Source: a bacterium (GTDB lineage: Bacteria > UBA8248). From it: a stretch of DNA of 64,000 nt. Below the pieces are notes generated by a model that worked only from the letters and a program-made list of their open reading frames with translations, was not told the origin of the DNA and did not search any database. Every line of letters begins with the position of its first letter. The first letter of the stretch is position 1. Position numbers and translations under genes: made by a program. Location: the NCBI GenBank assembly GCA_965207065.1, contig OZ242260.1:4384001-4448000 (forward strand). Direction: 5' to 3'. Positions 4,182-62,012 of this stretch are shown in pieces.

Positions 4182-5087
4182 ATGGCGCGCAAGGCAACGA
4201 AAAAAATCGCATTCCTGGGTTTGGGCCGCATGGGCGGATTAATGACGAAACACCAGGTCGATGCCGGCTTTCCCGTCACGGGCTACGACCCCGTGCCCAA
4301 AGCCGTCGCGGCGGCCAAGAAAAACGGAGCCAAAACCGCCAGAACCGTCGCAGCGGCGGTGAAGGGCGCCGATGTGGTGTGCAGTTCGCTCCCCTCTCCC
4401 GCCGTCGTCAGAAGCGTATACCTGGGACCCAAGGGCGTGATCGAGACGGCGCGCCGCGGCGCGGTCTGCTTTGAGCTTTCGACGAGCACCGTCAGCCTGG
4501 CGAAGGAGATCGCCGAGGCGGCGAAGAAAAAGGGAATCGCCTTTCTGGACGCGCCCGTGAGCGGGAGCATTCCGCACCTGGAACGCAAGGAAGTCGCCGC
4601 CATCGTGGGCGGAGACCAGGCCGCACTCAAAGAACACCGCGACGTGCTCGACGCCTTCAGCAAATCCATCACCTACATGGGAAAATCCGGAAACGGCCTG
4701 ATCATGAAACTGGTGACCAACCACATCCTGAACATCCAGCATTCCGGCATGGCCGAGGGTCTCGCTTTCGGTATGAAGGCGGGACTGACTGCCCCCAAGA
4801 TGATGAAATTTTTGCAGGGAAGCGTGATTCCCCTGCTCATCCACTACAAGGGTACTACGATGGCGGCGCGCGATTATTCCGACGTCATCGCGAACCTGGG
4901 GATAAGCTTCAAGGATTTGGGACTCAGCATCAACGAGGCGAACGATCTGGGCGCCCCCGTTCCCCTGGGCGCCGCCGCGCGCCAGCAATACACCTCCGCC
5001 ATGGCGTTAGGCCTCGAAGATGCGGATTTCAACGCCGTTTTCGAGTCGTTCCTGAACGCCATGGGCACGAAGCCGAAGAGAAAATAA
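4182..5087 (+). CDS. NAD(P)-dependent beta-hydroxyacid dehydrogenase (3-hydroxyisobutyrate/tartronate semialdehyde reductase family), copy 1
   Basis: FLGLGRMG, FLDAPVSG, MKLVTN (catalytic Lys), KDLG. Confidence 0.88.
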   Translation: MARKATKKIAFLGLGRMGGLMTKHQVDAGFPVTGYDPVPKAVAAAKKNGAKTARTVAAAVKGADVVCSSLPSPAVVRSVYLGPKGVIETARRGAVCFELSTSTVSLAKEIAEAAKKKGIAFLDAPVSGSIPHLERKEVAAIVGGDQAALKEHRDVLDAFSKSITYMGKSGNGLIMKLVTNHILNIQHSGMAEGLAFGMKAGLTAPKMMKFLQGSVIPLLIHYKGTTMAARDYSDVIANLGISFKDLGLSINEANDLGAPVPLGAAARQQYTSAMALGLEDADFNAVFESFLNAMGTKPKRK

Positions 5088-5216
5088 TTTTACAGGGGCA
5101 AGCGGAGGTAGGCGCTCGCGTCCGAAGACGCCTCATTCGATTTTTGAGAGAAGGCCCCAACGTTCTCAACCATTATCGTAGAACGATGGCGCAAGAAACT
5201 TCAGGAGTCTGAAGGT

Positions 5217-6122
5217 ATGGCGCGCAAGGCAAAGAAGAAGATCGCATTTCTCGGCCTGGGCCGCATGGGCGGACTGATGGCGAAACACCTGGTTGACGCT
5301 GGCTTCGACGTCACCGGTTACGACCCTGAACCAAAGGCCGTCGCGACGGCAAAGAGGAACGGCGCGAAAATCGCGAAAACAGTTGCGGCGACCGTCACAG
5401 GCGCGGAAGTGGTGTGCAGTTCGCTTCCCAAAACCGATATCGTGAGGAACGTCTACCTGGGCAAAGGCGGCGCGCTCAAGGCCATGCGGCGGGGCGCGGT
5501 CTGTTTCGATCTTTCGACGAGCAGCGTCGCCCTGGCGAAAGAGATCGCCGCTGAAGCCAAGAAGAAAGGAATCGCCTTCCTGGACGCTCCCGTGCTCGGA
5601 AGCGTTCCGCACCTGGAGCAAAAGGGAGTCTCTGCCATCGTGGGCGGAGACGAGTCCGCTCTCAAGGAACACCGCGACGTGCTCGACGCTTTCAGCAAGT
5701 CGGTCACCTATATGGGGAAATCCGGAAACGGCCTGCTCATGAAGCTGGTGTCGAACCACATCATCTTTATTCAGCACGCCGGCATGGCCGAAGGCCTGGC
5801 GTTCGGGGTGAAGGCGGGTCTCACGGCCCGGAAAATGATGAAATTCCTGCAAGGGAGCGTGATTCCGGACCTGATCCACTACAAAGGCCCAGAGATGGCG
5901 GCGCGCGATTATTCCAACGTCATCGGGCACCTGGGGCTGAGTTACAAGGATATGGGTATCAGCGTCAACGAGGCGAACGATTTGGGCGTCCCTGTCCCTA
6001 TTGGCGCCGCCGCGCGACAGCAACACACCTCCGCCATGGCGCTCGGTTTCGAGCACGCGGACTTGAACGCGGTTTTCGAGGCTTTCCTGAACGCCATGGG
6101 AATGAAGCCGATGAGAATATAA
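5217..6122 (+). CDS. NAD(P)-dependent beta-hydroxyacid dehydrogenase, copy 2 (close paralog of 4182-5087)
   Basis: Same length (301 aa) as copy 1, with long identical stretches. Confidence 0.88.
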   Translation: MARKAKKKIAFLGLGRMGGLMAKHLVDAGFDVTGYDPEPKAVATAKRNGAKIAKTVAATVTGAEVVCSSLPKTDIVRNVYLGKGGALKAMRRGAVCFDLSTSSVALAKEIAAEAKKKGIAFLDAPVLGSVPHLEQKGVSAIVGGDESALKEHRDVLDAFSKSVTYMGKSGNGLLMKLVSNHIIFIQHAGMAEGLAFGVKAGLTARKMMKFLQGSVIPDLIHYKGPEMAARDYSNVIGHLGLSYKDMGISVNEANDLGVPVPIGAAARQQHTSAMALGFEHADLNAVFEAFLNAMGMKPMRI

Positions 6123-6255
6123 TTTTCATAGGGGCAGTACAGGTATCCCCATACGAGGCGGGAGAAGCCCCTCCTTTTTTTTACGGGATTGGCCTGTCCA
6201 CCGATTCGCAAGCGCGGGCGTCGCGAGACGCCTTATTCAACAGGAGTGATGAGAA

Positions 6256-7134
6256 ATGGCGAAAGTGGTTGCTTTTCTGGGTCTCGGCAACATGGGTTCG
6301 GGCATGTCGGACAATCTGGTGAAGGCGGGTTTCGAAGTCCGGGGCTTCGACCCCGTCCCCGCCGCGCGCGAGCGGGCGGCCTCGGCTGGTCTCGCAGTCT
6401 TCGAGACGGCGGCGGAAGCCGCTACGGGCGCAGAGGTCATCTGCAGTTCGGTGCCCGAAGTCGAGCACGCGATAGAAGCCTATCTGGGTGAGACCGGTGC
6501 GCTCACCACTGCTGCCGATGGCGCGGTCTGCTTCGACCTGTCGACACTGACGGTCGAGGGCAGCCAGGAACTCGCCGGGGAGGCGAAAAAACTAGGCGTC
6601 CAGTTTCTCGACACCCCCGTGAGCGGGAGCGTGCCCCACGCGAGGGCGGGAACCTTGGCCATCATGGTGGGGGGCGATGAAGCTTCGCTCGAGGCCCACC
6701 GCGACGTTCTGGAGGCCTTCAGCGCCTCGATCCACTACTTCGGCGCGAACGGGGCGGGCCTCCAGATGAAGCTGGTGACGAATCACATCTTTGCGATCCA
6801 TATCTCCGCCATCGCCGAGGCGCTGACCATGGGGACGAAGGGGGGCCTGGACCCCGAGCTGATGGTCGAGTTCCTGAAGGCGAGCGTGATCCCGAAAATT
6901 CTCGAGTACAAGGCCTCACCCATGATTGCCAAGAACTACACGCCCACGTTCACGATAAACCTGATGCTCAAGGATCTGCGCATCATCGCTGCGATGGCCG
7001 ACGGCATCGGGACGCCGATCCCGCTGGGGACGATGGCGCGGCAGGTCTATATGAGCGCGGCCGCCCTGGGCCACGGGGACGCGGACCAGAACGCCATTTT
7101 AGAGTTTTTTGAAAAAGGTGCTGGGATGGATTAG
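6256..7134 (+). CDS. NAD(P)-dependent beta-hydroxyacid dehydrogenase, copy 3 (more divergent)
   Basis: FLGLGNMG, FLDTPVSG, MKLVTN, LMLKDL. Confidence 0.88.
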   Translation: MAKVVAFLGLGNMGSGMSDNLVKAGFEVRGFDPVPAARERAASAGLAVFETAAEAATGAEVICSSVPEVEHAIEAYLGETGALTTAADGAVCFDLSTLTVEGSQELAGEAKKLGVQFLDTPVSGSVPHARAGTLAIMVGGDEASLEAHRDVLEAFSASIHYFGANGAGLQMKLVTNHIFAIHISAIAEALTMGTKGGLDPELMVEFLKASVIPKILEYKASPMIAKNYTPTFTINLMLKDLRIIAAMADGIGTPIPLGTMARQVYMSAAALGHGDADQNAILEFFEKGAGMD

Positions 7135-7266
7135 CGCTTCGAGTGAGCGTTTGTCGTGCAGTCGGCTCCAGAGGCTATTGCAAGCGCAGCGCTCTCCCGG
7201 CATGGCGCTTGGGCGAATTCTTCGGGATAATGACTCGATTATCATGTTTGAAGAGATGGACTTGCT

Positions 7267-7291
7267 ATTCTTGAGTAAATTAGTTTAGTAT
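7267..7291. promoter_or_regulatory. Putative Rrf2-family (IscR type-1-like) operator upstream of moeB/moeZ
   Basis: ATTCTTGAGTAAATTAGTTTAGTAT matches 21/25 positions of the IscR type-1 consensus ATASYYGACTRWWWYAGTCRRSTAT (counted by eye), in an AT-rich promoter patch. Confidence 0.4.
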
Positions 7292-7405
7292 TCGAAAGAA
7301 TTATGGACGGGCGCTGCGCGCTCTTTCATTCCGACAACTTACGCGATACGATTCTCCAATCCATATCCCTTTTCAGCGAACGCTGGCAGCAAAGGAGATC
7401 AAGAA

Positions 7406-8605
7406 ATGTCAAAGACAGGACGGGACCTGCTCGAGGCCGCGCGGGGCGATGTTCCTGAGATCACGGCGGAAGAAGTGAAGACCGCTATCGATTCGGGCGC
7501 CGAGGTGGCGCTCATCGACGTGCGCGAACCCGACGAGTTCCGGGGCGGCTACCTGCCGGGCGCCGAGCACGTGAGCCGCGGATTCCTGGAACTCAAGATC
7601 GAACAGGTCGTTCCCGATAGGACGACGCCCATCGTCGCTTACTGCGCGGGCGGCGTGCGCTCGCTGCTCGCGGGCCAGGCGCTGCAATCCATGGGCTATC
7701 AGAACGTGAAATCCATGGCCGGCGGATACGGGAAGTGGAAAGACCTGGCCTTTCCCGTGCAAGTGGACAAGCAGATGAGCGCCGAGCAGTTAAACCGCTA
7801 CAGCCGCCACTTCCTGCTCTCCCAGATCGGGGAAAAAGGCCAGTCCAAACTCCTGGACGCCAAGGTCGTCCTGATAGGCGCGGGAGGTCTGGGCTCTCCC
7901 ACCGGTCTTTACCTGACCGCCATGGGGGTGGGCAACATCGGCATCGTGGACCTGGACGTCGTGGACATGAGCAACCTGCAGCGCCAGATCGTCCACACGA
8001 ACGACCGCGTGGGAATCTCCAAGGTCGAGAGCGCGACAGCTACCCTCACCGCGCTGAACCCGGACGTGAACGTCATCGCGCACGAAGATAGAATCAACCG
8101 CGACAACGCGCTCGACATCCTCAAAGACTACGACGTCATCGTGAACGGGGCGGACAACTTCCCGACGCGCTACCTCGTGAACGACGCGGCGGTATTTCTC
8201 GGGAAACCCATCGTCGACGCCTCCATCTTCAAGTTCGAGGGCCAGGCCACCGTCTATCATCCCGGAGAGGGCGGCCCCTGCTACCGCTGCCTCTACCCCG
8301 AACCGCCGCCACCCGGCATGGTGCCCTCCTGTCAGGACGCAGGCGTGCTCGGCGCGCTTTGCGGCACCATGGGATCCATCCAGGCGACGGAGACGGCCAA
8401 ACTCATCGTTGGCTTCGGCGAACCGCTGATCGGCAAGCTGCTGATGTACGACGCGCTCAAGTCGCAGTTCAGGACGCTCAAGATCAGGCGCGACCCCGCC
8501 TGCCCGGTGTGCGGAGACAGCCCCTCCATCACCGAGCTCATCGACTATGAGTTCTTCTGCGGCCTCACGGAAGCACCCGCCGGCGGCGCCGCCAACGGTC
8601 ATTGA
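7406..8605 (+). CDS. moeB: Rhodanese + ThiF/MoeB sulfur-carrier adenylyltransferase (MoeZ-like)
   Basis: N-terminal rhodanese (IDVREPDE, YCAGGVRS), then RYSRH, GAGGLGSP, SNLQRQ, DNFPTRY, CYRC and CPVC. Confidence 0.92.
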   Translation: MSKTGRDLLEAARGDVPEITAEEVKTAIDSGAEVALIDVREPDEFRGGYLPGAEHVSRGFLELKIEQVVPDRTTPIVAYCAGGVRSLLAGQALQSMGYQNVKSMAGGYGKWKDLAFPVQVDKQMSAEQLNRYSRHFLLSQIGEKGQSKLLDAKVVLIGAGGLGSPTGLYLTAMGVGNIGIVDLDVVDMSNLQRQIVHTNDRVGISKVESATATLTALNPDVNVIAHEDRINRDNALDILKDYDVIVNGADNFPTRYLVNDAAVFLGKPIVDASIFKFEGQATVYHPGEGGPCYRCLYPEPPPPGMVPSCQDAGVLGALCGTMGSIQATETAKLIVGFGEPLIGKLLMYDALKSQFRTLKIRRDPACPVCGDSPSITELIDYEFFCGLTEAPAGGAANGH

Positions 8606-8665
8606 TGGGAACTAAACAGGCCGTCAAGCAGATATAGGGAATCAACGAAAGCCGAACCATAATAC

Positions 8666-8697
8666 ACCCCCGGGGCGAAATGTTCCGGGGGTTTTTC
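8666..8697 (+). terminator. Rho-independent terminator after moeB
   Basis: Stem ACCCCCGGGGC/GTTCCGGGGGT followed by TTTT. Confidence 0.75.
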
Positions 8698-8728
8698 TAA
8701 GTCCTACATGAAAATCAAAAAATATTTC

Positions 8729-8757
8729 TTGCAAAACAATAATTTTTGACTTATAGT
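8729..8757 (+). promoter_or_regulatory. Sigma70-type promoter of the retron-like operon
   Basis: TTGCAA (8729-8734), 17 nt spacer, TATAGT (8752-8757); overlapped by the inverted repeat 8715-8726/8738-8749. Confidence 0.7.
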
Positions 8758-8761
8758 TAGA

Positions 8762-9200
8762 AAAGATGTGGCAGGGTGATTCGCCCTGTATGTTCTTTGA
8801 CAATCCATCTTCGGGTATGGTGTTTAGGCCTACCATCTGACGCCTCTCCAAGCGTTCGTTTTTCTGGGTGCTTGCTCTTGAAATTTAGGCAATGCCTAAA
8901 ATCCAGTGTAAAACTCCGAACACTGTGATTACCCGTTTTATGCAGCCTGAGACATATCGATGCTTCAGCCCTTTCTTGGGGAGCATCGGTTCTTTGGTCA
9001 GTAAGCATTTGAAAATGAAGTATGCATATAACGGGCGTTCGCTCTATTGATGGACATTATAGGCGGGCTAACGAATGAGGGGTCTTAAGGGAGACTCCGC
9101 CAGTTTCTAGTCGAGAACAGAGGAGGTGAACAGATGAAAATAACTTAAGCACCAATAAATTCCGCCCGCCTGATTTATCCACAGAATAGGAAAATAAAAA
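8762..9200 (+). ncRNA. Putative retron msr-msd / structured leader RNA
   Basis: No credible long ORF; dense hairpins; inverted repeats 8932-8944/9023-9035 and 9061-9068/9164-9171; directly upstream of a retron-type RT operon. Confidence 0.6.
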
Positions 9201-9201
9201 A

Positions 9202-9522
9202 ATGGATAAAAATCGAAACTCGAAGATGGGCCTTGAGAGGGCCGCAAAAGACATTATCAAAGTCGGTTACAAACTTCTTCGACAACAAAGCGACCCTCTC
9301 ATGGCGGGGACTTCAAAAGTAGTTCGTCGCCGACTCAAGCAGTTGGAACGTCAGCTACAAAATAAGCGAGTTCCACTTCCACAAAAAGAATTGGACAAAA
9401 TCGCTACAGAAGTCGCTGACACGATTAGCTGTCTTATGAAGTCCCTCATTCGTTACTTATTTTCCGCAATCCACCATTGCGAGTTATTCATAGTATGGAA
9501 ACTAAAATTGGCAACACATTAA
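9202..9522 (+). CDS. Small basic, probably helical protein; candidate retron effector
   Basis: 106-aa ORF with AGGA RBS; overlaps the HTH gene start; first gene of the RT operon; no recognisable domain. Confidence 0.6.
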   Translation: MDKNRNSKMGLERAAKDIIKVGYKLLRQQSDPLMAGTSKVVRRRLKQLERQLQNKRVPLPQKELDKIATEVADTISCLMKSLIRYLFSAIHHCELFIVWKLKLATH

Positions 9523-9800
9523 AAGTATTAAGGGTGGCTGCAGGCATAAACCAAGCGACCATGGCAAAAAGGCTAGAAATTACCCAAAATTATTTATCAC
9601 TTGTCGAAAATAACCACAAAGAACCAAGTCTCTCTTTTCTAAAAAAGTTCGCCGGCAATTTTGACATTCCCCTCGGGTATTTTTTGTGGCTCGCATTGGA
9701 TAAACAAGAAAATAACGAGGAAGAAGAGTTACGTGAAAAAATGGACTTGTTGCTAGAGCAAATATTGGTAGGCAGAAGAAAAAAAAATGCCTGGAAATAA
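9495..9800 (+). CDS. XRE/Cro-C1 helix-turn-helix protein (retron-associated)
   Basis: IGNTLKVLRVAAGINQATMAKRLEITQNYLSLVENNHKEPSLSFL; overlaps the RT start by 14 nt. Confidence 0.85.
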   Translation: METKIGNTLKVLRVAAGINQATMAKRLEITQNYLSLVENNHKEPSLSFLKKFAGNFDIPLGYFLWLALDKQENNEEEELREKMDLLLEQILVGRRKKNAWK

Positions 9801-10734
9801 AAAGGCAAAATTAAAATCATTCTGGAACATACGAACGTCGAAAGATTTGTCACGCCTGCTCGGTGTAAAAGAAGAAATCTTAAACAAGATTTCGCAATCA
9901 GCACATTTGATGTACCGATCGCGAAATGAGCCTAAGAAAACTGGAGGGACTAGGCCAATAGACAGTCCTAGTAGTCATCTAAAATGGATACAATCAAAGA
10001 TTAACAAGTGTTTATTGCAAAGAACTCGCGTCCATAAATCTGCAATGGGAGGTATCCGCGGTAAAAGATTGAAAGACAATGCGGAAAAACATGTAGGAAA
10101 AAATTTAGTTGGCAAATTCGATTTAGAAAATTACTTTACTAACATTTCTCATAAGCAAGTCTATAATCGATTTTGCTCTATGGGGTGCTCCCCAGATGTG
10201 GCTAGAATTCTCACTAAACTAACAACATATAAAGGAAGAATTCCCCAAGGAGCGCCAACAAGTACTATGCTTGCGAATTTAGTAGCTGCTTATGCAAGAG
10301 ACAATCATAGTTTCAATGCAAGGATTGATTCGCTGGCTAGAAAACGTAATGCAACCGCTACTACCTGGGTTGATGATGTCACAATCTCGGGCCCATGTTA
10401 TATCCAAAAAGAAGCCAATACTTTCGAGAAAATTGCCAGGCAAAGTGGTTTCATTCCAAACACTGATAAAAATGAATTCATAAACAGCAACCAGCAACAA
10501 TTCGTCACTGGGGCAGTTGTCAATCAAAAAGTAAGCGCCTCAAAAGACTACAGAAAAGCTATACGAGCCGAACTCCATCAACTAAAAGTCCATGGTCCAA
10601 GCAACATTTGCAAAGAACCAATCAAAAAAGTAAAGGCGAAGCTTCGGAGCAAAATTGCACATGTAGACAATCTGAACCACGAACAAGGTGAAAAACTTCT
10701 AAAAGAATTCAACGCTATCGACTGGGACTCTTAA
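9787..10734 (+). CDS. Retron-type reverse transcriptase
   Basis: PKKTGGTRPIDSP; retron region X NAEKH; FDLENYF; PQGAPTSTMLANL; catalytic WVDD; retron region Y VTG (FVTGAVVN); AT-rich. Confidence 0.9.
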   Translation: MPGNKKAKLKSFWNIRTSKDLSRLLGVKEEILNKISQSAHLMYRSRNEPKKTGGTRPIDSPSSHLKWIQSKINKCLLQRTRVHKSAMGGIRGKRLKDNAEKHVGKNLVGKFDLENYFTNISHKQVYNRFCSMGCSPDVARILTKLTTYKGRIPQGAPTSTMLANLVAAYARDNHSFNARIDSLARKRNATATTWVDDVTISGPCYIQKEANTFEKIARQSGFIPNTDKNEFINSNQQQFVTGAVVNQKVSASKDYRKAIRAELHQLKVHGPSNICKEPIKKVKAKLRSKIAHVDNLNHEQGEKLLKEFNAIDWDS

Positions 10735-10813
10735 AAGTCGCCAAACATAAGAAATATCTAAACAAAAACACTGAGAAACTTAAAAAAACTAACTCCTCCA
10801 ATCAGAAAAATCC

Positions 10814-11170
10814 CTACCCAACCTCCTCCAGCCTGGCCGCATCCATCACCGGTCTTATGGGGTATTGGCCCCGCAGGAGTTCGGCGAGAAAACCCAGGTG
10901 TTCGGCGAGGGCCGACATGTGCGCGGCGGCGTAGCGGGCGGATAGCGCACCGGCCTCTTGCGCCAGGGCTTCGCGCGCATCTGTGGCGGGAGCCTCCTGG
11001 GCGGCCAGGGCGTTAAAGGCATCAAGCAGGGCGCAGATGTCTTCATGCGCTCCCGCATATTCCGTCTTCAGCGCATAGGGGCTTCTCAGGATGAGGTGCA
11101 CGGGGTTTTGCGTGTTCGATGACTGATCGAGCATGCAGCGGCTTCGTCTCTGGTCGTAGTTTTCGGGCAT
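10814..11170 (-). CDS. Hypothetical protein
   Basis: Ala-rich ORF with host-like GC immediately downstream of the MBL hydrolase gene; start uncertain. Confidence 0.45.
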   Translation of the reverse strand: MPENYDQRRSRCMLDQSSNTQNPVHLILRSPYALKTEYAGAHEDICALLDAFNALAAQEAPATDAREALAQEAGALSARYAAAHMSALAEHLGFLAELLRGQYPIRPVMDAARLEEVG

Positions 11171-11178
11171 CGTCCTCT

Positions 11179-12093
11179 TCAACCTCCCCGCGCGTCGTGG
11201 AGCGATATCCCCTGCTCGCCACGGCCTTTGAACTCGTTGTAGAGCTTCATCACGGCCTGCTCGACGCGGTCGGGCTTCATCCACTCCGTATACCTGCCCA
11301 GAGGAATCTCGCGCGCGGCGCGCTTGGCGGGCACACCTTTTTCGAAGCGTTTTTTCGCCTCCCGGCGCACGAGCCGGAGGTAGCTTAAAGTTTTCTCGAG
11401 CGCGCGCTTATCCCCAGGCGGCCCGTGCCCCGGAACAATAGTATCGACCGAAAAAGTTTTGAGTATCTTGTCCGCGATCCGTATCCACCCGCCGATATGG
11501 GCGTCGAAGGTGGCGGGCGTAACGTAGTGAAAGCAGATATCGCCTGTGAAGAGAACACGCTCCTCAGGCAGATAGACGACTGTGTCGCCTTTAGAATGCG
11601 CGTGGCCCAGGTGGTGGAGTTCCACGACGCGCTTGCCCAGGCGAAGCGTCATACCGCCCTCGTAGGTGACGTCGGGAAAGCGTGGCTTAAGCCTTTTGAG
11701 TTCGCCTGCGTATTCGGGGTTCACGCCCCGGTAGTGCGCGAGGTCGAGCCCCGTCTCTATCATCCGCTCGCGCATGTAGCGGTGCGCGATGACGGGGATG
11801 TCCTTATCGAACCATGTAAGCCCCAGGGTGTGATCCGCATGGTGGTGGGTGCAGACGATTTTGCGCACCGGCTTTCGGGTCGCCTTTCGGATCGATTCCT
11901 GAAAAGCCTGCGTCATGGGCCGCACGTACAGAGAATCGATGACCAAGGCCTCGCTGTCCCCCACGATGAGGCCTGCGTTCGAGACGTTCAGCCCGCCCCC
12001 CTGAATGTAGGCGTAGACGCCCGGGGCCATGCGCTGAAGCCCCGTCTTCCAGCTTGCGGGTATTTTCCGGGTCTCGACCATACGTACCTCCAT
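11179..12093 (-). CDS. Metallo-beta-lactamase fold hydrolase (cyclase-like)
   Basis: THHHADH, AHSKGD, LFTGD and VPGHG motifs. Confidence 0.88.
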   Translation of the reverse strand: MEVRMVETRKIPASWKTGLQRMAPGVYAYIQGGGLNVSNAGLIVGDSEALVIDSLYVRPMTQAFQESIRKATRKPVRKIVCTHHHADHTLGLTWFDKDIPVIAHRYMRERMIETGLDLAHYRGVNPEYAGELKRLKPRFPDVTYEGGMTLRLGKRVVELHHLGHAHSKGDTVVYLPEERVLFTGDICFHYVTPATFDAHIGGWIRIADKILKTFSVDTIVPGHGPPGDKRALEKTLSYLRLVRREAKKRFEKGVPAKRAAREIPLGRYTEWMKPDRVEQAVMKLYNEFKGRGEQGISLHDARGG

Positions 12094-12205
12094 TTCGGGT
12101 AATCCATTCTACACGATGGGAGCAATTGACCACACGCCCCCGAACGGGCGACATTAGCGCGAATTCAAAGCTTAAGTTTCAGCCGTTCACGCAAAGGGGG
12201 AGCAA

Positions 12206-12616
12206 ATGCAATTATCGTTCGATCATGTGCACATCATCTGCAAGGATTTGGGAAAGATGGTTGCCTTCTTTGAAGACATCTTCGGCGGCGAGGTCATTTA
12301 CCAGGAAGATAATTTCCATGGCGCGCCCAACGCCGTCGTCCGCGTCGGCGAGGCAAGGCTTTTCCTGAGAGGCGTGCGGCCGGGTGAGCGCATCGGGGAA
12401 AACCACCAAGAAGCCGTGATGGGGCTCGACCATTTCTCATTCGCCGTGGACGACATCCACGGACTCGCCGCGCAGATGAAAGAAGCGGGCGCGGACTTTA
12501 TCCGCGACCCTTCTCCTTCGGGCATGGGGGGCAGGACGACGGCCTACATCCGGGGACCCGAGGACGTGCGGATAGAGCTTTCAGAACGCGCGGGAGAGAC
12601 CTACGGAGACGGTTGA
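12206..12616 (+). CDS. VOC/glyoxalase family protein
   Basis: FDHVHI, GLDHFSFAVDDI, GPEDVRIELSE. Confidence 0.85.
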   Translation: MQLSFDHVHIICKDLGKMVAFFEDIFGGEVIYQEDNFHGAPNAVVRVGEARLFLRGVRPGERIGENHQEAVMGLDHFSFAVDDIHGLAAQMKEAGADFIRDPSPSGMGGRTTAYIRGPEDVRIELSERAGETYGDG

Positions 12617-12642
12617 AGCGCCCTCCCCCTTCCGGGCCAAAC

Positions 12643-12672
12643 AAAAACCCCCGGGCGTCAAACCCGGGGGTG
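12643..12672. terminator. Terminator between the convergent VOC and ino1 genes
   Basis: AAAAA-CCCCCGGG...CCCGGGGG stem; the U-tract is on the minus strand. Confidence 0.7.
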
Positions 12673-12693
12673 TAATGTTCCGAAGTGTAGTCG

Positions 12694-13839
12694 TTATTTG
12701 TGGTCGTAGCGCGCGGGCAGGCCGTTGCCGTTGAACTCGGCATGGTCGCTCGCGCGCAGGTCGCCCGCGATGAACTCGTCGATCATGATCCGCGAGACGG
12801 AATCGGGCACCTGCACCGGGGGGTGTTTCATCAGATAGGCGCTCACCGGGTAGAGCGGGCCCGCCTCGCCCCTGTCGCGGGCGATGCGCGCGAGGCGAAT
12901 CGCGTCGATGACGACGCCGCCCGAGTTTGGAGAATCCTCCACCGAGAGGCGCGCCTCGATCTCGAGCGGCACGCCGCCGAAGCCCTCCGCCTCGATTCTC
13001 AGGAAACAAATCTTGTTGTCGTCCTGCCAGGGCACGTAGTCAGACGGGCCGATGTGGATGTTGTCCGAATCCAGGGGTTCGGGAAGCTGACTCTGCACGG
13101 CGTCCGTTTTCGATATTTTCTTTGATTTGAGACGTGAACGCTCCAGCATGTTCAGAAAATCGGTGTTTCCCCCCGTGTTCAACTGGTAGGTGCGCTTCAG
13201 CTTCACGCCCCTGTCCGCGCACAGCCTGGCGAGCGTGCGGTGGAGTATTGTGGCGCCGAGCTGGGCCTTCACGTCGTCTCCCACTACCGGTATGCCCGCA
13301 TCGGTGAAACGGCCCGCCCATTCGGGGTCAGACACGATGAAGACCGGCATGCAGTTAATGAAGGAAACGCCCGCCGCAAGGGACGCTTCCGCGTAATGGC
13401 GCGCCGCCTGCTCCGAGCCCACCGGCATGAAGTTCAATAAAATTTCCGCGCCGCTCTCTCGAAGCTCCGCCGCCACGTCGCAGGGTTCGGCCTCAGCGGG
13501 GAGAAAAGAGCGATCGGAAGCGTATTCCGCCATGTGGGACGCCACGCCGTCCAGGATGGGCCCCATCAGCACGTTCACGCCGTAGTCGGGCAGGTTCTCC
13601 CAGATGGTTTTCGTGCAGTTGGGCTTGGCGAAGGCCGCTACATGAAGCGGCTGCCCCACCTTGCGGACGTCGATGTCGAAAGCCGCCACAACCTCGATGT
13701 CCTCCGGCTCGTAGCCGCCCAGTTCCCGGTGCATGAGACCCAATTCCTCTTCGGGATGGTGGCGGTAATACTCGATGCCCTGGAGCAGGGAACTTGCGCA
13801 GTTCCCCACGCCGGCGATGGCGATGCGAATCGGCGACAT
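12694..13839 (-). CDS. ino1: Myo-inositol-1-phosphate synthase
   Basis: GVGNCASSL, GDDVKAQLGAT, YQLNTGGNTDFLNM, SKKISKT, EDSPNSGG. Confidence 0.93.
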   Translation of the reverse strand: MSPIRIAIAGVGNCASSLLQGIEYYRHHPEEELGLMHRELGGYEPEDIEVVAAFDIDVRKVGQPLHVAAFAKPNCTKTIWENLPDYGVNVLMGPILDGVASHMAEYASDRSFLPAEAEPCDVAAELRESGAEILLNFMPVGSEQAARHYAEASLAAGVSFINCMPVFIVSDPEWAGRFTDAGIPVVGDDVKAQLGATILHRTLARLCADRGVKLKRTYQLNTGGNTDFLNMLERSRLKSKKISKTDAVQSQLPEPLDSDNIHIGPSDYVPWQDDNKICFLRIEAEGFGGVPLEIEARLSVEDSPNSGGVVIDAIRLARIARDRGEAGPLYPVSAYLMKHPPVQVPDSVSRIMIDEFIAGDLRASDHAEFNGNGLPARYDHK

Positions 13840-34786: not shown

Positions 34787-34845
34787 TACCGCCCCGATTC
34801 GTATGTAGCGCGCTAATTGATCGAGTAGTATCGTTTTTCCGACCT

Positions 34846-35007
34846 GTCGCAGGTGGGCTTTCTGAGTGAAAGCCCGGGAAGCCGGTGAGAATCCGGCGCG
34901 GACCCGCCACTGTGACCGGGGACGAAAGCGGCCATTACCACTGGCGGATGCCGCCGGGAAGGGGCCGTGAGTAGGATGATCCGGAAGCCAGGAGACCGAC
35001 CTGCGGC
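34846..35007 (+). promoter_or_regulatory. Cobalamin riboswitch 1
   Basis: GGGAAGCCGGTGAGAATCCGGCGCGGACCCGCCACTGTG ... CCACTGG ... GGGAAGG ... AGCCAGGAGACC; P1 GTCGCAGGT/ACCTGCGGC. Confidence 0.92.
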
Positions 35008-35139
35008 AACCTTTTGACCCGTCACGTCCTCGCGGAACGGGAGGTGGGTGGTATCTTGCGCATCATCACACCCCAAGACGAGAGAATCATCGCACGCGCG
35101 GGCATTGCGCACACGCGGCGATAAAGTTTCGCCATAAGC

Positions 35140-35360: not shown

Positions 35361-35393
35361 AAAAGCGCGGCGGACGCATCCGCCGCTGAAACA

Positions 35394-35536
35394 GCCGTCA
35401 GGTGTTCGGGAATCCGGTGTAAGACCGGAGCTGCCCAGCAGCTGTGAGCGACGCGCCTTTCATGCAACCACTGGGATTTTCCCGGGAAGGAATGAAAGGC
35501 GGCCATCGGCGCGAGCCAGAAGACCGGCCTGCCGGC
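35394..35536 (+). promoter_or_regulatory. Cobalamin riboswitch 2
   Basis: GGGAATCCGGTGTAAGACCGGAGCTGCCCAGCAGCTGTG ... CCACTGGG ... GGGAAGG ... AGCCAGAAGACC; P1 GCCGTCAGGT/GCCTGCCGGC. Confidence 0.88.
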
Positions 35537-35602
35537 ATCTCCCATGCGACCCCACGAGGGGTCCGTTTCGAGCGCTTGGGCCGCTCAAGGAGGCGTCACA
35601 TC

Positions 35603-47103: not shown

Positions 47104-47570
47104 TGTAGGGACAGGCACAGGGGCCGGACAGGCACAGGGGCCTGTCCCTACGGGATCCTTGTGGAGAATCACACACGCCCGTCATTCCGGTCTCGGACAG
47201 GTCGCGACCTGTCCCTACAAAATCAACCCCCCCTACCCCCCTTGACAGGGGGGCATGAAAAGGCAACCCCCGCGACAGGAAAAGCAACCCCCCCTACCCC
47301 CCCTTGACAGGGGGGCATGAAAAAACAAAGCCCCTGATAAAAAACCTTCCCGGCAGGGGGGTATGAAAAAACAAAGCTCCCCCGACAGGGGGAATAATTG
47401 AAAGACCCCCCTGACAAGGGGGGGTAGGGGGGGTTGCTTCTGACGAGGAGAGTCGGGGGTTCGTGCGGAAGCGGCCTTCCCGCAAAAGGCAATGCCCCCG
47501 GCAAGGGGAGTTGCGGATCGGACGCGACCGATGCGGAGACCCCGGACAGGTCACGACCTGTCCGCTACGC
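47104..47570. repeat. Composite repeat region (REP-like palindromes and CCCCCCTACCCCCCTT units)
   Basis: Multiple copies of both families visible. Confidence 0.7.
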
Positions 47571-47653
47571 ACCCCCCTCACCTGCCGGTTTCTCCTTTTT
47601 CCGCCGAAAAGATTCCTTGACAATTATGAAAATTATCGCGCAATATGGATGCG

Positions 47654-48188
47654 TGCGACACAATCCGCGGGGTGGAGAGGCTTCGGCTGCTCGCCGTCCA
47701 CGAGGCGACCTTCCGACGGAAGGTCGAAATAGGCGAGAAATCACCTTGACAAAACGGAAAAGGCTGTAGCAATATCAAGTCTGCGACACGTTCCATGAGG
47801 TGCAGTCGACTTCGGGCTGCCCGCTGAATACAAGACGACCCTCTTCCGGAGGGCCGGAATAGGCGGGAACCCACCTCAAGTACCTATACCTCGTGGATTG
47901 TGTCGCAACCAGCCCGGACTGCGACGCATCCTTATCGTCGCACCCCCCGCGCTGTTTGAATCGATCACAAGCGGCATGAAAACTGCCCGTTTATATACGC
48001 GAGATGAAGGAGGCTCATCGGAGGAAGCTGTAACTGCGTTGATACACCTTTTTTGAATCTAAGTTTGCGACACGTTTCACGAGGCGCGGTCATCTTCAGG
48101 ATGACGGCAAAAAGGCGGCCTTCACCCTTGATGGCCGAAGGGATAATGGGAACCCACCTGAACCACCAACCCTCCTGAAACGTGTCCC
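47654..48188 (+). ncRNA. Three homologous structured non-coding units of unknown family
   Basis: Units start TGCGACAC at 47654, 47782 and 48066; shared hairpins with compensatory changes; TTGACA-18-CAATAT precedes units 1 and 2. Confidence 0.55.
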
Positions 48189-48498
48189 GGGAAATCCGGA
48201 ACGCGGGCCGCAAGGCAGGCGCTCTCCGGTTGACGAGACAACATGAACCCAGGATTGAAGGCCCAAAAATATGAGGAAAGGAGGTTAATCGGAGAAAGCC
48301 GGCATATACACGTAAAATTTCTCCCCTCGCCAGTCACCCCACCGAACGCGCTCTGATACGATAAACAACTGATTTAATTCACCTTTAATTCAATCGGCAT
48401 ATATTCCTGCGCTTGCAACCTCGTCAGGCGTGTGCTCCAATACGCTCCTGTTTGATGCCGCGTGTTTGCGATTTGATTACGGTTTCAGGGGAGGATCC

Positions 48499-49680
48499 AT
48501 GCCGAAAAGAAGCGGGAGCAGGCTCACGAAGCGCGCCGTCGACGCGCTCTGTGTCGAGGGGAAGGACGCGGTCTTCTGGGACAGGGAACTGGCCGGTTTC
48601 GGGGTGCGCGTCTACCCCACGGGGCGGAAGGTCTACGTGGTGCAATCGAGGGGGCCGCGCGGGCCGAAGCGCAAGGCGCTGGGCCGTCACGGGGATATAT
48701 CGTGCGACGAGGCGCGCAAGCTTGCCGCCGCCCTCATCGACCGCATCAAGCGGGGGGAGAACCCCGCACCCGGTGCGAAACTCACCGTGGCGGGGCTGGC
48801 GGAACGCTTCATGCGCGTCCACGTGTCGGCGCACTGCAAACCGCTCACCGCCGTTTCCTACGGCAGCACGCTGGAGAAGCACGTCCTGCCGTCATTTGGC
48901 GAGATGGGGGTCGGCGAGGTCACGGGAGGCGACGTCATGGCCATGCACCACCGCATGCGTGAGACGCCCAAGGCGGCCGACATAGCGGTCGACGTGCTCT
49001 CGAGAATGTATGTGCTGGCCGAGGCGTGGGAACTCATACCGCCCGGGAGCAATCCTTGCTCGGCAGTGCGCCGCTACCGGAGGCGCCCCCGCGAGCGGTT
49101 CCTGACGCCCGAGGAGTTCCGCCGCCTGGGCCGCGCGCTGCGCGAAGCGGAGGCGGAGGGCTCGGCCCGGCCGTCCACGATTGCGGCGCTCCGCCTCGTG
49201 ATGCTGACCGGGTGCAGGAAGTGCGAGATTCTGGAACTCAACTGGGACGACGTGGATCTCACGGCGGGGGAGCTCAGGCTCAGGGACGCGAAGTCGGGGC
49301 CGCGCATGGTCCACCTGACGGCGCCCGCGCTCGTGGTGCTCGGTCAAGTCCCGCGCACGCCGGGGGAGGCCCGCGTGTTCCCCGGGCGGGAAGGGAGGAG
49401 CCACAAGCCCTACTTCGACCTGGTCTGGCGGCGGGTGCGGGCTCGCGCGGGACTCGAAGACGTAAGGGTCCACGACCTGAGACACTCCTACGCCAGCCGG
49501 GCGCTCGCGCTGGGCGAGGGGCTGCCCATGATAGCGAAGCTGCTCGGACACGCGGGGATATCGACGACGGCGCGCTACGCGCACCTGATGCGCGAGGCGG
49601 AGAAGACGGCGGCCGCCCGGGTTGGGGAGAGTATCGGGGTCCATCTGGAGCCTCGGGCCACGGAAGCCCGGGCGGAATAA
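48499..49680 (+). CDS. Tyrosine recombinase/integrase with N-terminal arm-binding domain, copy 1
   Basis: WDRELAGFGVRV arm domain; TGCR, HDLRH, LLGH and TTARYAH catalytic motifs. Confidence 0.92.
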   Translation: MPKRSGSRLTKRAVDALCVEGKDAVFWDRELAGFGVRVYPTGRKVYVVQSRGPRGPKRKALGRHGDISCDEARKLAAALIDRIKRGENPAPGAKLTVAGLAERFMRVHVSAHCKPLTAVSYGSTLEKHVLPSFGEMGVGEVTGGDVMAMHHRMRETPKAADIAVDVLSRMYVLAEAWELIPPGSNPCSAVRRYRRRPRERFLTPEEFRRLGRALREAEAEGSARPSTIAALRLVMLTGCRKCEILELNWDDVDLTAGELRLRDAKSGPRMVHLTAPALVVLGQVPRTPGEARVFPGREGRSHKPYFDLVWRRVRARAGLEDVRVHDLRHSYASRALALGEGLPMIAKLLGHAGISTTARYAHLMREAEKTAAARVGESIGVHLEPRATEARAE

Positions 49681-49696
49681 CGGGGAGGCGCCGGAG

Positions 49697-50902
49697 ATGG
49701 CGAAGCTGCAGGGCGGGACGCTCTCGAACCGCATGGTGGAGAAGCTTGCCGCCGAAAAAGACTCGGTTTTCTGGGATCGCGACCTCACGGGCTTCGGCGT
49801 GCGTGTCTACCCCACGGGGAGCAAGGTCTACGTCGCCCAGGTCCGGGGGCCGAAGGGTCCCAGGCGCGTGACGGTGGGCCGGCACGGTGTGATCAACGCG
49901 GATGAGGCGAGGAAGCGCGCGGCCTCGGTCATCGCGCGGGTGAAGGCGGGCGAGGAAGTAGCGTCCGGACCGGCGAAGCCCGCGGGAGGCCCCACGGTGG
50001 CCGATCTCGCGCGGCGCTACATGGAAGAGCACGTGGCGGTCCGGTGCAAGCCGAGCACCGGGGACCTCGCCCGCGCGGTGGTATGCAAGCACATCCTGCC
50101 GGCCCTGGGCAGGGCGCCGCTTGCGGCGCTCGAGCGCGCGCAGGTGGCGGAGTTGCACCAGCGGCTGGGCAGGACGCCCTACATGGCGAACATGGTGGTC
50201 CGCACCCTGAAGCTGATGTACAGGCTGGGCGAGGGCTGGGGCATGGTCCCCAAGGGATGCAACCCGTGCCGCGCCATCGTGAAGTATCCCGACCGCAAGC
50301 GCGAACGCTTCCTGACCGATAAGGAGTACACCCGCCTGGGGCGCGTCCTGGAGGAGGCCCGAAACAGGCGCGGTTCGGCGGGAGCGGTGGCGGCCATCCG
50401 CCTTTTGATGCTGACCGGGTGCCGGAAGAATGAGATACTCTCGCTCCGCTGGGAGAACGTCTCGCTCGAGGCGCGTGAATTCAGGCTGCCCGGCGCCAAG
50501 ACGGGCGCGCGGGTGGTGTCCTTATCGCCGCCGGCGCTCAAGCTCCTCTCCGCCCTGCCCCGGGCGCCCGGGAGCCCGTGGGTGTTTCCCGCCAGGAACC
50601 CCGGCGAGCACGTCCGCTCCGTCCACCATGTCTGGAAGAGCGTCTGCTCGCGCGCCGGTATCGAGAACGTGCGGGTCCACGACCTCAGGCACTCCTACGC
50701 CTCGCGCGCCCTGGCCCTGGGCGAGAGTCTCACGATGATCGGAAAACTCCTGGGGCACAGCCAGATCAAGACCACGGCGCGCTACGCGCACCTCGCGCGC
50801 GAGTCGGTGCGCGAGTCCGCCGAGCGCGTCGCAACCAGTATTGCCGACGACGTATTGGAGGAGGACTGGAGGCGGGCTCTCGGTTCAGAACACGTCCCGT
50901 AG
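49697..50902 (+). CDS. Tyrosine recombinase/integrase, copy 2
   Basis: Same arm domain and catalytic motifs; GGAGG RBS. Confidence 0.92.
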   Translation: MAKLQGGTLSNRMVEKLAAEKDSVFWDRDLTGFGVRVYPTGSKVYVAQVRGPKGPRRVTVGRHGVINADEARKRAASVIARVKAGEEVASGPAKPAGGPTVADLARRYMEEHVAVRCKPSTGDLARAVVCKHILPALGRAPLAALERAQVAELHQRLGRTPYMANMVVRTLKLMYRLGEGWGMVPKGCNPCRAIVKYPDRKRERFLTDKEYTRLGRVLEEARNRRGSAGAVAAIRLLMLTGCRKNEILSLRWENVSLEAREFRLPGAKTGARVVSLSPPALKLLSALPRAPGSPWVFPARNPGEHVRSVHHVWKSVCSRAGIENVRVHDLRHSYASRALALGESLTMIGKLLGHSQIKTTARYAHLARESVRESAERVATSIADDVLEEDWRRALGSEHVP

Positions 50903-51042
50903 CGGCGCGAGCCGCGACAGGCCGTGTAGTCCGTGCGCCGGCGCAGGTCTCATCGTAACGGCGCGCAACCATATGCGCTTGCGCTTTATCCGGGCCTTGC
51001 TCTCTGCCGACGGCCGGCGACGAACAGTGCCCCGCGTCGGCG

Positions 51043-51369
51043 TCAATCGCTGGCGTCGTGCCCGGCGATGCCCGCGAGCTCGACCGGAGGGCGGTCGGGG
51101 AAGCGGGCGACGAGCGAGAGGCTTCCGCCCATCGCCTCGACCGTCCGGCGCAGCGTGGACAGCAGCAGGTCGCTGCGCTGCTCGAGCCGAGAAACCGCGT
51201 CCTGGCCGATGCCGAGCTCGCGCGCAACGCTCACCTGGGTTAGCCTGCGGGCCTCGCGCAACTCGCGCAGCGTCATCTCCTCGGCGATCAGTTCCGCCGC
51301 CCGCTCCTCGATCCTGCGCCGCCGCTCGGGGGCGAGACTTGCGATTACCTCTTCCACGTCGAGCGCCAT
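51043..51369 (-). CDS. XRE-HTH antitoxin, copy 1
   Basis: LRELREARRLTQVSVARELGIGQDAVSRLEQRSDLLLSTL. Confidence 0.85.
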   Translation of the reverse strand: MALDVEEVIASLAPERRRRIEERAAELIAEEMTLRELREARRLTQVSVARELGIGQDAVSRLEQRSDLLLSTLRRTVEAMGGSLSLVARFPDRPPVELAGIAGHDASD

Positions 51370-51686
51370 TACGATTCTCCTCTTCTTTCCTCGGCGAGCC
51401 GGGCGAGGTGCCGGTCGTATCGTTCGTCGGCCTTGCGGGTAAGCGCGCGGTAGAACCGCCGCCGGCTCCTGCCCGTCTTCTCGCCCGCAACCAGCACAAC
51501 GGCCTGACGTGCGGGATTGAACGCGAAGGCGACCCGCCATGCTCCGTCCACTGCGCTGAACCGCATCTCCTTCATGTTCGCATGCCGCGATCCGTGCAGC
51601 GTATCCACCTGCGGCCTTCCCAGTTGCGGCCCGAACTGCTCGAGCAAGCGACCGATTGCGTAGACCTCATCCTGAACCTGGCCGGG
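51369..51686 (-). pseudogene. RelE/ParE-like toxin, copy 1, native N-terminus replaced
   Basis: GPQLGRPQVDTLHGSRHANMKEMRF; similarity to copy 2 stops near 51686, so the MKWQVAFH start is missing. Confidence 0.6.
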
Positions 51687-51983
51687 CGGGAAGGAGGCGA
51701 CGACAGGCGTCCGGGAGAAGCGGCACTTTCCTTCGCGGTCAGGGCCGACAACCGCCATCGTCCATCCCTTCCAAGGAAGCACGCGATCCGGCGCAGGAGG
51801 CGGACGACTGCTCGGAGATGCGGCGAAAAAATATTTTCCGCGGCGCGTCACACCCGGCACGGAACGCCGCAGGACCCGGGCGGTCGTTCATCACGCACGT
51901 CTCTTAAATCGCGCCTCGCACCGACGAGGTGCCGGGCCGGGAAGGGATCCGTCCTTCCCGATCGTGGCTCACTTCGCCCGCCC

Positions 51984-53012
51984 TCACGCCTTCCCGGAAT
52001 GATCCGCCAGTCCGCGCAGCAGGGTTTTCCAGGAGACGGCGCCGACGACGGCTCCTGCCTCGTCCACCACCCGCAGCGGCGCATCGCTATCGATACACTT
52101 GAGCAGCATGTCCTGAAGCACGGTGTCGCGCGATACGGTTGGCCCGTTCGCGTCGCCTTTCGGCGGCGTCATGATGGAGGCCGCCGTCACCACGCGGCCC
52201 CGCTTCACGTCGCGCACGAACTCGCGCACGTATTCGGTGGCCGGGTTGAGCAGAATCTCCTCCGGCCCTCCTATCTGGTCGATCACGCCGTCCTTCAGGA
52301 TGGCGACGTCATCGCCCAGCTTGAGCGCTTCGTCCAGATCATGAGTGATGAAGACGATGGTCTTCTTGAGGTCGCGCTGGAGCGCGATGAGGTGTTCCTG
52401 CATCTGCTTGCGGATCAGCGGATCCAGGGCGCTGAATGGCTCGTCCATGAGGAGAATCTCGGGGTCCGTGCACAGCGCGCGCGACAGACCCACGCGCTGC
52501 TGCATGCCGCCCGATAGCTGGGCCGGGTAGGCGTTTTCATAGCCGATGAGGCCCACGTCCTCTATCCACCGCATCGCGCGCCGGCGCCGCTCGGCAGGTT
52601 CCACCCCCTGGACTTCCAGGCCGTAGCCCACGTTCTCAATGACCGTCAAGTGCGGAAAGAGCGCGAAACGCTGAAAGACCATGCTCACGGCGCCCCGCCG
52701 GAAGGCGAGCAACTCCTCGGTCGAGAATTCGAGAACGTCCCGCCCGTCGACGAGTATCTGGCCCGTCGTCGGGTCGATCAGCCGGTTGATGTGGCGGATC
52801 AGGGTAGATTTTCCCGAACCCGAAAGGCCCATGACCACGAATATCTCGCCGCGCTCGACGGAGAGGCTCACGTCCTTTAAGCCCAGGGTGCAGCCGGTCT
52901 CGACCAGCACGTCGTTCTTCTCGACTCCCGTTTGGGCCATTTCGAGCGCCGTGTCCAGCGCGCGTCCCGTTCCGAATATCTTGTAGACGTTTCGCACCTC
53001 GATCAGCGCCAT
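51984..53012 (-). CDS. proV: Glycine betaine/proline ABC ATP-binding protein
   Basis: MGLSGSGKST, LSGGMQQRVGL, DEPFSALDPLIR. Confidence 0.9.
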   Translation of the reverse strand: MALIEVRNVYKIFGTGRALDTALEMAQTGVEKNDVLVETGCTLGLKDVSLSVERGEIFVVMGLSGSGKSTLIRHINRLIDPTTGQILVDGRDVLEFSTEELLAFRRGAVSMVFQRFALFPHLTVIENVGYGLEVQGVEPAERRRRAMRWIEDVGLIGYENAYPAQLSGGMQQRVGLSRALCTDPEILLMDEPFSALDPLIRKQMQEHLIALQRDLKKTIVFITHDLDEALKLGDDVAILKDGVIDQIGGPEEILLNPATEYVREFVRDVKRGRVVTAASIMTPPKGDANGPTVSRDTVLQDMLLKCIDSDAPLRVVDEAGAVVGAVSWKTLLRGLADHSGKA

Positions 53013-61625: not shown

Positions 61626-62012
61626 GTGCCGGGAGGCTTCGCTCTCTCCCGCTCACGCGGGCATGTGATCCATATTCCGGTGTCTCCCCCCAATTTTTCG
61701 TCGCGGCGTCCGGTCCTCTTCACGGACGCCCATATTACCCGAAATCAATCCGCGTGCAAGGAAATTTTGTAGCGGATTTCCTGCGCCTTGCCGCCGTACG
61801 CGCTCACGACCACCATCCCCCGCGCCGGGGTTTGACAAAAAAATACGCTAAGACAGGCGGCATCCCTCTTTTCCTCCACAGGCGCGCCCCGCCCCGCCGA
61901 GAGACAGAGCCGGGCCGGGAGGGGGCGGCGGAAGGGGTCCGGGAGGGAGGCTCTCCCTCTCCGGTCAGTACCGGTCGCCGCCATCATCCACCCATTCCAA
62001 GGAGGCCGCGCG

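Follow-up and report, generated by a model that had tools for sequence, protein, structure and literature searches.

What are the three related units that lie just upstream of two tandem integrase genes in this bacterial DNA? A preliminary description of the window (by which we mean the whole 64,000 nt stretch that was analysed) took them to be either an undescribed small RNA or riboswitch-like family under structural selection, or single-stranded DNA hairpins or guides tied to the adjacent integrases. The positions it gave for the unit starts, for the promoters of units 1 and 2 and for the 129 bp period between those two promoters are correct. The same sequence, TGCGACAC, opens all three units (at 47654, 47782 and 48066), and the array is organised as follows in window coordinates, where the match scores refer to a covariance model, R1, that was built from seven copies of the element:

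47617..47646, + strand: unit 1 promoter, with TTGACA at 47617-47622, an 18 nt spacer and CAATAT at 47641-47646
47654..47745, + strand: unit 1, a degenerate, 3'-truncated partial family member
47746..47775, + strand: unit 2 promoter, with TTGACA at 47746-47751 and CAATAT at 47770-47775
47782..47918, + strand: unit 2, a canonical full member (R1 161.7 bits, E 1.3e-40)
47782-47800/47889-47907, + strand: closing stem P1 of unit 2
47802-47820, + strand: hairpin P2 of unit 2
47820-47824/47863-47867, + strand: P3 of unit 2
47825-47835, + strand: junction UGAAUACAAGA of unit 2
47836-47856, + strand: P4 of unit 2
47868-47875, + strand: AACCCACC of unit 2
47910-47918 with 47811-47819, + strand: pseudoknot of unit 2, tail CAGCCCGGA with UUCGGGCUG
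47921..48055, + strand: 3' extension of unit 2, with a hairpin at 47921-47941, an RBS-like AAGGAGG at 48007-48013 and a U-run at 48049-48054
48066..48201, + strand: unit 3, a full but variant member (R1 98.5 bits, E 1.9e-23)
48069-48084/48171-48186, 48088-48106 and 48192-48201, + strand: P1, P2 and tail of unit 3
48223..48302, + strand: distal leader, with a second RBS-like AAGGAGG at 48278-48284 and the integration core AAAGCCGG at 48295-48302

Neither of the TTGACA-18-CAATAT promoters is listed by a simple promoter scan because CAATAT agrees with TATAAT at only 3 of 6 positions. Both are taken as real because TTGACA, 17-18 nt and yAnnAT, ending a few bases ahead of P1, are conserved ahead of nearly all copies of the element; the -35/-10 arrangement of unit 1 is kept in 12 orthologous loci, and four other copies in the same genome have a promoter 89% identical to that of unit 2.

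The RNA of unit 2 has a predicted folding energy of -60.2 kcal/mol (z -5.37, with 0 of 200 shuffles equally stable) and that of unit 3 one of -49.9 kcal/mol (z -4.55, 1 of 200), and both are closed by stems of 16-19 bp that carry compensatory changes, as had been described. Unit 1 alone folds unremarkably (z -0.75, 44 of 200 shuffles equally stable), and what looked like a local triplication is part of a multi-copy family. Since the reverse strands of units 2 and 3 fold about equally well (z -4.85 and -4.80), the strand is set by the conserved promoters and by the G-U pairs, which would become A-C mismatches on the opposite strand and thus favour the + strand. Units 2 and 3 share GGGAACCCACC (47865-47875 and 48148-48158), as reported before; in unit 3 an A-rich junction replaces GAAUACAA, and orthologous second units are present in 8 relatives. 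Unit 1 contains the P1 5' strand, a P2-like hairpin and P3/P4, whereas the GAAUACAA junction, the tail and the 3' strand of P1 are missing; it matches R1 partially (model positions 34-112, E 0.0024) and is conserved in orthologs, in which changes preserve its G-U pairs.

The 5' end of unit 1 (47654-47673) can pair over about 20 bp with the 3' strand of unit 2 (47888-47907), an observation of the preliminary description that stands: the pairing is present in the minimum-energy fold of 47653-48056, which agrees with an RNA that spans both units, and the complementarity is kept in 12 orthologous arrays, in two of them through G-U changes. Two other proposed helices fared differently. The switch-like TGAGGTG/CACCTCA pairing is 60.7% paired as against a shuffle mean of 61.2%, and the further stem at 48223-48295 is no stabler than shuffles in any of four orthologous leaders (z +0.07 to +1.96).

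The units are members of a previously uncatalogued structured RNA family. No Rfam family was recognised in the preliminary description, and cmscan was likewise negative for units 1-3 and for other copies. Run over the whole window against Rfam 15 at gathering thresholds, it found two cobalamin riboswitches and one tRNA, all elsewhere; the two cobalamin aptamers are on the same strand, about 550 nt apart (34834-35018 and 35383-35546; 121 and 87 bits). With the threshold relaxed to E<=10, the region 47200-48500 gave 11 weak matches, every one of them to the left of 47587, where poly-C/poly-G hairpin repeats form a block. This block (47220-47510; one example is CCCCCCTTGACAGGGGGG, whose inverted arms of 34 nt lie at 47282-47315 and 47406-47439) resembles well over 100 other stretches of the genome. 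It is a true dispersed repeat of the REP-like kind and not part of the RNA family. Seven other family copies gave no Rfam match, and the stand-alone copy discussed below gave just two chance lncRNA matches (E 0.6 and 1.7). An rRNA-operon leader was ruled out as the identity of four near-identical two-promoter copies (no rRNA or other Rfam match in those loci). Neither the family nor the hairpin element behind its stand-alone copy is SRP or 6S RNA, both of which sit elsewhere in the genome. At the level of literature listings and abstracts, work on Nitrospinota or Nitrospina riboswitches and on riboswitches of sponge-symbiont surface lipoproteins leaves the family undescribed.

BLAST located the element at seven further places in the 4.48-Mb genome. 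In the same genome R1 gave 13 matches at E<=1 (11 full-length, the unit 1 partial match and one antisense echo) and a broader model, R2, gave 14 at E<=0.01, so that covariance models place the copy number at 11-14; a relaxed regular expression for extra copies returned only 3, all already known. Among 61 genomes sampled as relatives 24 carry matches, and of the 51 genomes that represented the phylum 24 do, with 1-15 copies in each. Within the genus 20 of 22 other genomes carry the RNA; outside it three further genera have a single carrier genome each, which makes 4 of 15 genera, and R2 again found no match in five genomes that R1 had left without one. A strict core pattern applied to one genome per species (185,579 species) matched 29 stretches, all in MAG records, of which 7 are titled Nitrospinota or Nitrospinaceae, 22 only 'bacterium' and none another phylum. 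By the covariance model, nine of 15 matches of a looser pattern in metagenome contigs are true members and six are chance, and the sequencing runs that contain the stretch include sponge metagenome libraries. The RNA family is restricted to one uncultured, sponge-associated Nitrospinota lineage.

What fold do these copies share? The element is about 140-160 nt long and consists of a closing stem P1 (15-19 bp), a three-way junction, a variable hairpin P4 and a pseudoknot formed with the 3' tail. Its covariation was measured on two separate alignments made with the model, A3 (42 matches) and A4 (45 other matches). In A3, P1 is 93% paired with changes on both sides at all 15 of its pairs, and P3 is 93.5% paired. 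The pseudoknot joins CGGGYYG, just 5' of P3, to the tail RACCRGCCCGR, just 3' of P1; although this helix is absent from the covariance model used for alignment, it is 92.8% paired in A3 with 3 pairs changed on both sides. None of 500 shuffles reaches the values observed in A3, and sliding the partner by 1-3 columns reduces pairing to 32-46%. In the replicate, A4, overall pairing is 85.3%; in the pseudoknot core it is 81.7%, and 4 of the 5 pairs there are changed on both sides. P2 covaries as well (83.3% paired in A3 and 73.3% in A4), and the P2 hairpin and the pseudoknot use the same 3' nucleotides; therefore two mutually exclusive helices are both conserved. The idea of switching helices thus survives for P2 and the tail pseudoknot, a different pair from the one first proposed. 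P4 varies in length and sequence while, by inspection, remaining a hairpin, and the most conserved letters are the unpaired GAAUACAAGAC, GRAAYA and GGGAACCCAC. Behind the tail, copies with short leaders have a segment of complementary sequence (for example CCGGCC...GGCCGG), and after another 20-30 nt comes a ribosome-binding site. Covariance-model homologs that covary in two separate alignments bear out the claim of an undescribed family under structural selection, and the combination of a structured, covarying aptamer-like domain with conserved unpaired nucleotides is that generically seen in riboswitches.

The copies have a consistent position relative to genes. A same-strand ORF starts within 330 nt of 76 of the 87 distinct copies, and within 70 nt of 36; the other 11 have no ORF within 330 nt. 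The element therefore lies as a riboswitch generally does, in the 5' UTR on the strand of the downstream gene, and the riboswitch-like role first proposed fits this position. Downstream ORFs are enriched in signal-peptide-like N-termini (44/76, as against 270/1059 background ORFs of the same genome) and lipobox-like motifs (17/76 against 28/1059), figures that are rough because signal peptides were called by a crude hydropathy rule and ORFs were chosen automatically, and that are not independent counts because the copies are related. Pfam families among the downstream proteins include TbpB_B_D lipoprotein barrels, OMP_b-brl, CsgG, Sel1, DUF4875, 17-kDa surface antigen, Glyco_transf_25, Bac_transf and GH113; many others belong to no Pfam family and have an N-terminal part ...LAGCGGGGG. 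There are cytoplasmic exceptions, namely an HAD hydrolase, an SNase, an FAD enzyme and a hybrid histidine kinase.

One set of lipoprotein paralogs of about 550-610 aa (MMFREKSISK...LAGCGGGGG), which has no Pfam family and a near-identical ribosome-binding region, is found at genome positions 43786, 61715, 96682, 108353, 121746, 3991535 and 4461238, clustered within about 130 kb of the sequence origin. At 3991500-3992240 (- strand), behind the family member at 3992240-3992385, the lipoprotein leader contains 3-4 tandem repeats of about 130 nt, in each of which the ribosome-binding region of the gene recurs. The two RBS-like AAGGAGGYTMATCGGAG boxes of the window (48007 and 48278) may be related to this repeat.

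The best-conserved member of the family (genome positions 1626187-1626335) stands alone. Most genomes of the genus contain a single ortholog of it. A promoter of its own precedes it and a conserved stretch of about 100 nt with a terminal U-run extends it; there is no same-strand gene close behind, and it looks like a free RNA of about 250 nt. Its neighbours (a glyoxalase-family gene, a transporter and an aspartyl protease) gave no functional lead by synteny. Downstream of it is a second conserved hairpin-shaped element of about 125 nt, GGGGGTTACTCATT...AATGAGTAACCCCC (genome ~1626600-1626760), which also occurs about 290-420 nt behind two other copies of the RNA and has no Rfam match.

Are the units found in RNA? 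Three sponge metatranscriptome runs of one study contain contigs over 47667-47911, 47668-47890 and 47703-47896 with word depths of 88, 52 and 119, while separate contigs over 47914-48286 have depths of 4-9 (one of them, 47941-48286, depth 9.3, crosses the U-run at 48049-48054), so units 1-2 are about 10 times deeper than unit 3 in contigs that can give neither ends, strand nor level and do not prove transcription, as DNA may contaminate such libraries. The same runs have no contig left of 47624, and a run of a second study covers 47717-47961 in pieces; stretches of the region free of RNA contigs (47300-47623 and 48326-48487) should not be taken as silent. The steep local peak in depth is consistent with an abundant, stable RNA across units 1 and 2.

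We consider the element best read as a riboswitch-like cis-regulatory 5' leader of envelope genes, and put the chances of this at somewhat better than even, because it has a pseudoknotted core with invariant junction letters, begins at the predicted transcription start, lies in 5' UTRs and has two to three competing helices around its tail. Units 1-3 would then be the tandem 5' leader of a surface-lipoprotein gene, with each copy transcribed from its own sigma-70-type promoter from a start a few nt ahead of P1. The CGGGYYG stretch would form either the pseudoknot with the tail or, alternatively, the P2 hairpin, and the tail could instead pair with a short downstream segment. A trigger, either a small molecule or a factor, would toggle the RNA between these states, and the toggling would set the translation or the stability of the downstream mRNAs, mostly those for lipoproteins, outer-membrane and secreted proteins and envelope glycosyltransferases. 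In the window, an island inserted at AAAGCCGG has cut the array off from its gene.

How such toggling might reach the ribosome was approached with a simple thermodynamic test, in which the accessibility of the Shine-Dalgarno sequence was compared with the tail sequestered and free. In the 19 of 25 leaders that were scored (in the remaining 6 the motifs were not located by regular expressions) the means are 0.46 and 0.44, with 3 up and 2 down and no consistent shift, and a canonical terminator is absent behind the short leaders. Helices that exclude one another are present, namely P2, the pseudoknot and the tail/downstream hairpin. Other observations count against parts of the riboswitch-like leader reading: a regulon defined by exported proteins points to no metabolite, which speaks against a riboswitch, and the stand-alone nature of the best-conserved copy together with the ORF-less 11/87 copies speaks against a leader.

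The main rival takes the RNA for a protein-binding leader, recognised by a dedicated RNA-binding protein or by another macromolecule, and the abundant stand-alone copies and units 1-2 for decoys that titrate this factor away from the mRNA leaders in the manner of CsrB/RsmZ and CsrA. In those systems the same module occurs in CsrA-bound mRNA leaders and in separate abundant RNAs, and the new module is likewise found in many mRNA leaders and in separately transcribed abundant RNAs. The decoy explanation would account for a best-conserved copy with its own promoter and no adjacent same-strand gene, for the roughly tenfold greater depth of units 1-2 over unit 3 in the RNA-library contigs, for a regulon as broad as that of a global post-transcriptional regulator and for the failure to find a platform that occludes the Shine-Dalgarno sequence. 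However, the new RNA has one large fold per copy rather than the repeated GGA hairpin loops of CsrB/RsmZ, no candidate partner protein is linked to it by gene neighbourhood, mutually exclusive helices and a pseudoknotted core are equally typical of riboswitches, and stand-alone riboswitch RNAs also exist. We judge this explanation unlikely, at perhaps one chance in five.

A third possibility is that the element senses nothing and is a constitutive 5' module, like the ompA leader, whose paired 5' end and compact fold protect long-lived envelope mRNAs from decay that depends on their 5' ends. Several features would be expected of a stabiliser: in nearly every copy P1 begins only a few nt from the predicted start site, the proteins encoded downstream are abundant ones of the envelope, and no clear expression platform was found. 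A 5' hairpin would suffice for that purpose, though, and the invariant junction, the pseudoknot, the two covarying alternative helices and the stand-alone copies would be left unexplained, so we regard protection alone as distinctly improbable. Still less probable is that the copies are independent small RNAs, which base-pair with targets in trans and stand ahead of genes only incidentally: each has its own promoter, U-runs follow the long forms and the contigs in the RNA libraries are short and abundant, but in 36 of 87 copies a same-strand ORF begins within 70 nt and no terminator intervenes, and no conserved single-stranded seed complementary to a target was seen.

There remains the proposal that the units act as DNA and belong to the integrases. 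The relevant features of the window, all outside the RNA element, are:

48303..52517, + strand: left end of the island
48499-49680 and 49622-50902, + strand: two P4-type tyrosine integrases, each with Pfam Arm-DNA-bind_3 and Phage_integrase
50841-52517, + strand: an ORF of 558 aa that belongs to no known family

Two P4-type integrases and an ORF without a family rule out a RIT (recombinase-in-trio) element. Copies of the integrase pair with 97-98.6% identity are inserted at the same core behind two further RNA arrays. Seven more distant copies, about 70% identical, lie elsewhere and none of them has an RNA unit upstream, so that 7 of the 10 pairs in this genome are without an RNA unit nearby; conversely, most family members are far from any integrase. 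Four near-identical RNA arrays in the genome comprise two occupied and two empty sites. The empty sites read ...GGAGAAAGCCGG|AAATTCGC... and continue into a lipoprotein gene, the occupied ones read ...GGAGAAAGCCGG|CATATACACG..., and five junctions of another kind, ...CTAAAAAGCCGG|AAATTCGC..., are scattered over the genome. One of these, beyond the window and 44 kb downstream of the left junction in it, we infer to be the right end of the window's island. Comparison of the empty, occupied and other-kind junctions gives AAAGCCGG as the crossover core, 8 bp at 48295-48302, about 95 nt behind unit 3 and outside all units. In seven relatives the unit 2-unit 3 array lies directly ahead of the lipoprotein gene without integrases, and an eighth has the island at the same insertion point. 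Judged from these comparisons, the island is evidently inserted between the RNA array and its lipoprotein gene and has severed leader from gene; no lipoprotein leader was found farther downstream within the window. The integrases are unrelated bystanders to the RNA family.

Copies of the island family are at genome positions 13816, 70121, 3128156, 1557703, 1925689, 898173, 1131180, 2371261 and 323860, in addition to the copy in the window, and three islands are inserted at the AAAGCCGG core in lipoprotein-gene leaders. The attR-type junctions are at 108353, 121746 and 4476745 (+ strand) and at 61715 and 43786 (- strand), and the inverted orientation of some of them suggests rearrangements between islands. 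A perfect (100%) inverted duplication of at least 9.4 kb flanks the sequence origin (~4391-13826 and 4461249-4470684), and one of its sides ends exactly at the island insertion point.

P4-type integrase islands are known that insert at a fixed short core beside a small RNA gene. The islands described here have the same Arm-DNA-bind_3 tyrosine integrases and the same 8-bp core, occupied or empty among genomes and repeated at attR-type junctions; they differ in having two tandem integrases and in that the target is the leader of a lipoprotein family, not the 3' end of a tRNA, so that leader is severed from gene.

A DNA-level element, either a MITE-like repeat or ssDNA hairpins or guides for the integrases, is the least probable of the explanations and hardly credible. 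In its favour are inverted termini of 19 bp that look like terminal inverted repeats, the existence of many copies and the integrase island directly behind three arrays. Against it, copies differ in their stem by compensatory and G-U changes and agree in their interior, the opposite of what a MITE would show; they keep one orientation with respect to promoters and the genes downstream; the G-U pairs favour the + strand; the crossover core is outside the units; 7/10 integrase pairs are unit-free; and relatives have the array without integrases. An attC-like ssDNA-hairpin substrate is contradicted by the same crossover position and unit-free pairs and by the P4 type of the integrases, and the tie to the integrases that was suggested at first is not supported. 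Nor are the units just another dispersed genomic repeat, since a comparison with MITE- or Correia-like repeats, which conserve terminal-repeat sequence and lie in random orientation, showed instead compensation at 15/15 P1 pairs and a fixed promoter-ORF orientation.

If the riboswitch-like reading is right, what might the RNA sense? The c-di-GMP-I riboswitch (GEMM, RF01051) was recognised from its gene association before its ligand was known, and the new RNA resembles it in being multi-copy, sometimes tandem, and located in the 5' UTRs of membrane, surface and secreted-protein genes. It is built differently from GEMM, however, with its long P1, its three-way junction and a pseudoknot formed by the tail. 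No match to that family came from cmscan with the full Rfam; a whole-genome search with RF01051 gave none, a result that is uninformative by itself because the control matched in no genome either. Although c-di-GMP would suit the regulon, it is unlikely to be the trigger because of the distribution of GGDEF proteins: the RNA-carrying genus keeps one divergent protein (~55 bits), while 4-11 canonical ones are present in sister genera that lack the RNA. One small-genome genus of the phylum has zero GGDEF proteins.

Orphan riboswitch candidates and structured leaders from comparative genomics (reviewed in PMC7266159) share with the new family a pseudoknotted fold with covariation, conserved junction nucleotides, a 5' UTR location, a variable downstream region and the lack of a known ligand; the new family differs from them in being limited to one Nitrospinota lineage, in a regulon set by export and the envelope and not by a pathway, and in having one stand-alone member. 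A tentative extension, which we think somewhat doubtful, is that the family is a new riboswitch class for an unrecognised signal (a host-derived or envelope-stress metabolite, or a nucleotide messenger) that took over control of the surface proteome after the loss of canonical c-di-GMP signalling, with stand-alone and tandem copies adding trans-acting and digital layers.

One fold ahead of dozens of envelope genes marks a co-regulated surface regulon in an uncultured sponge symbiont and provides a handle on how these bacteria tune the surface that they show to their host. If the RNA binds a small molecule, it would be a new riboswitch class and would point to a signal for which no link to gene control had been made before; should it bind a protein, it would define a new global post-transcriptional circuit. 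The locus also presents a mobile island whose site-specific insertion repeatedly separates a gene from its regulatory leader.
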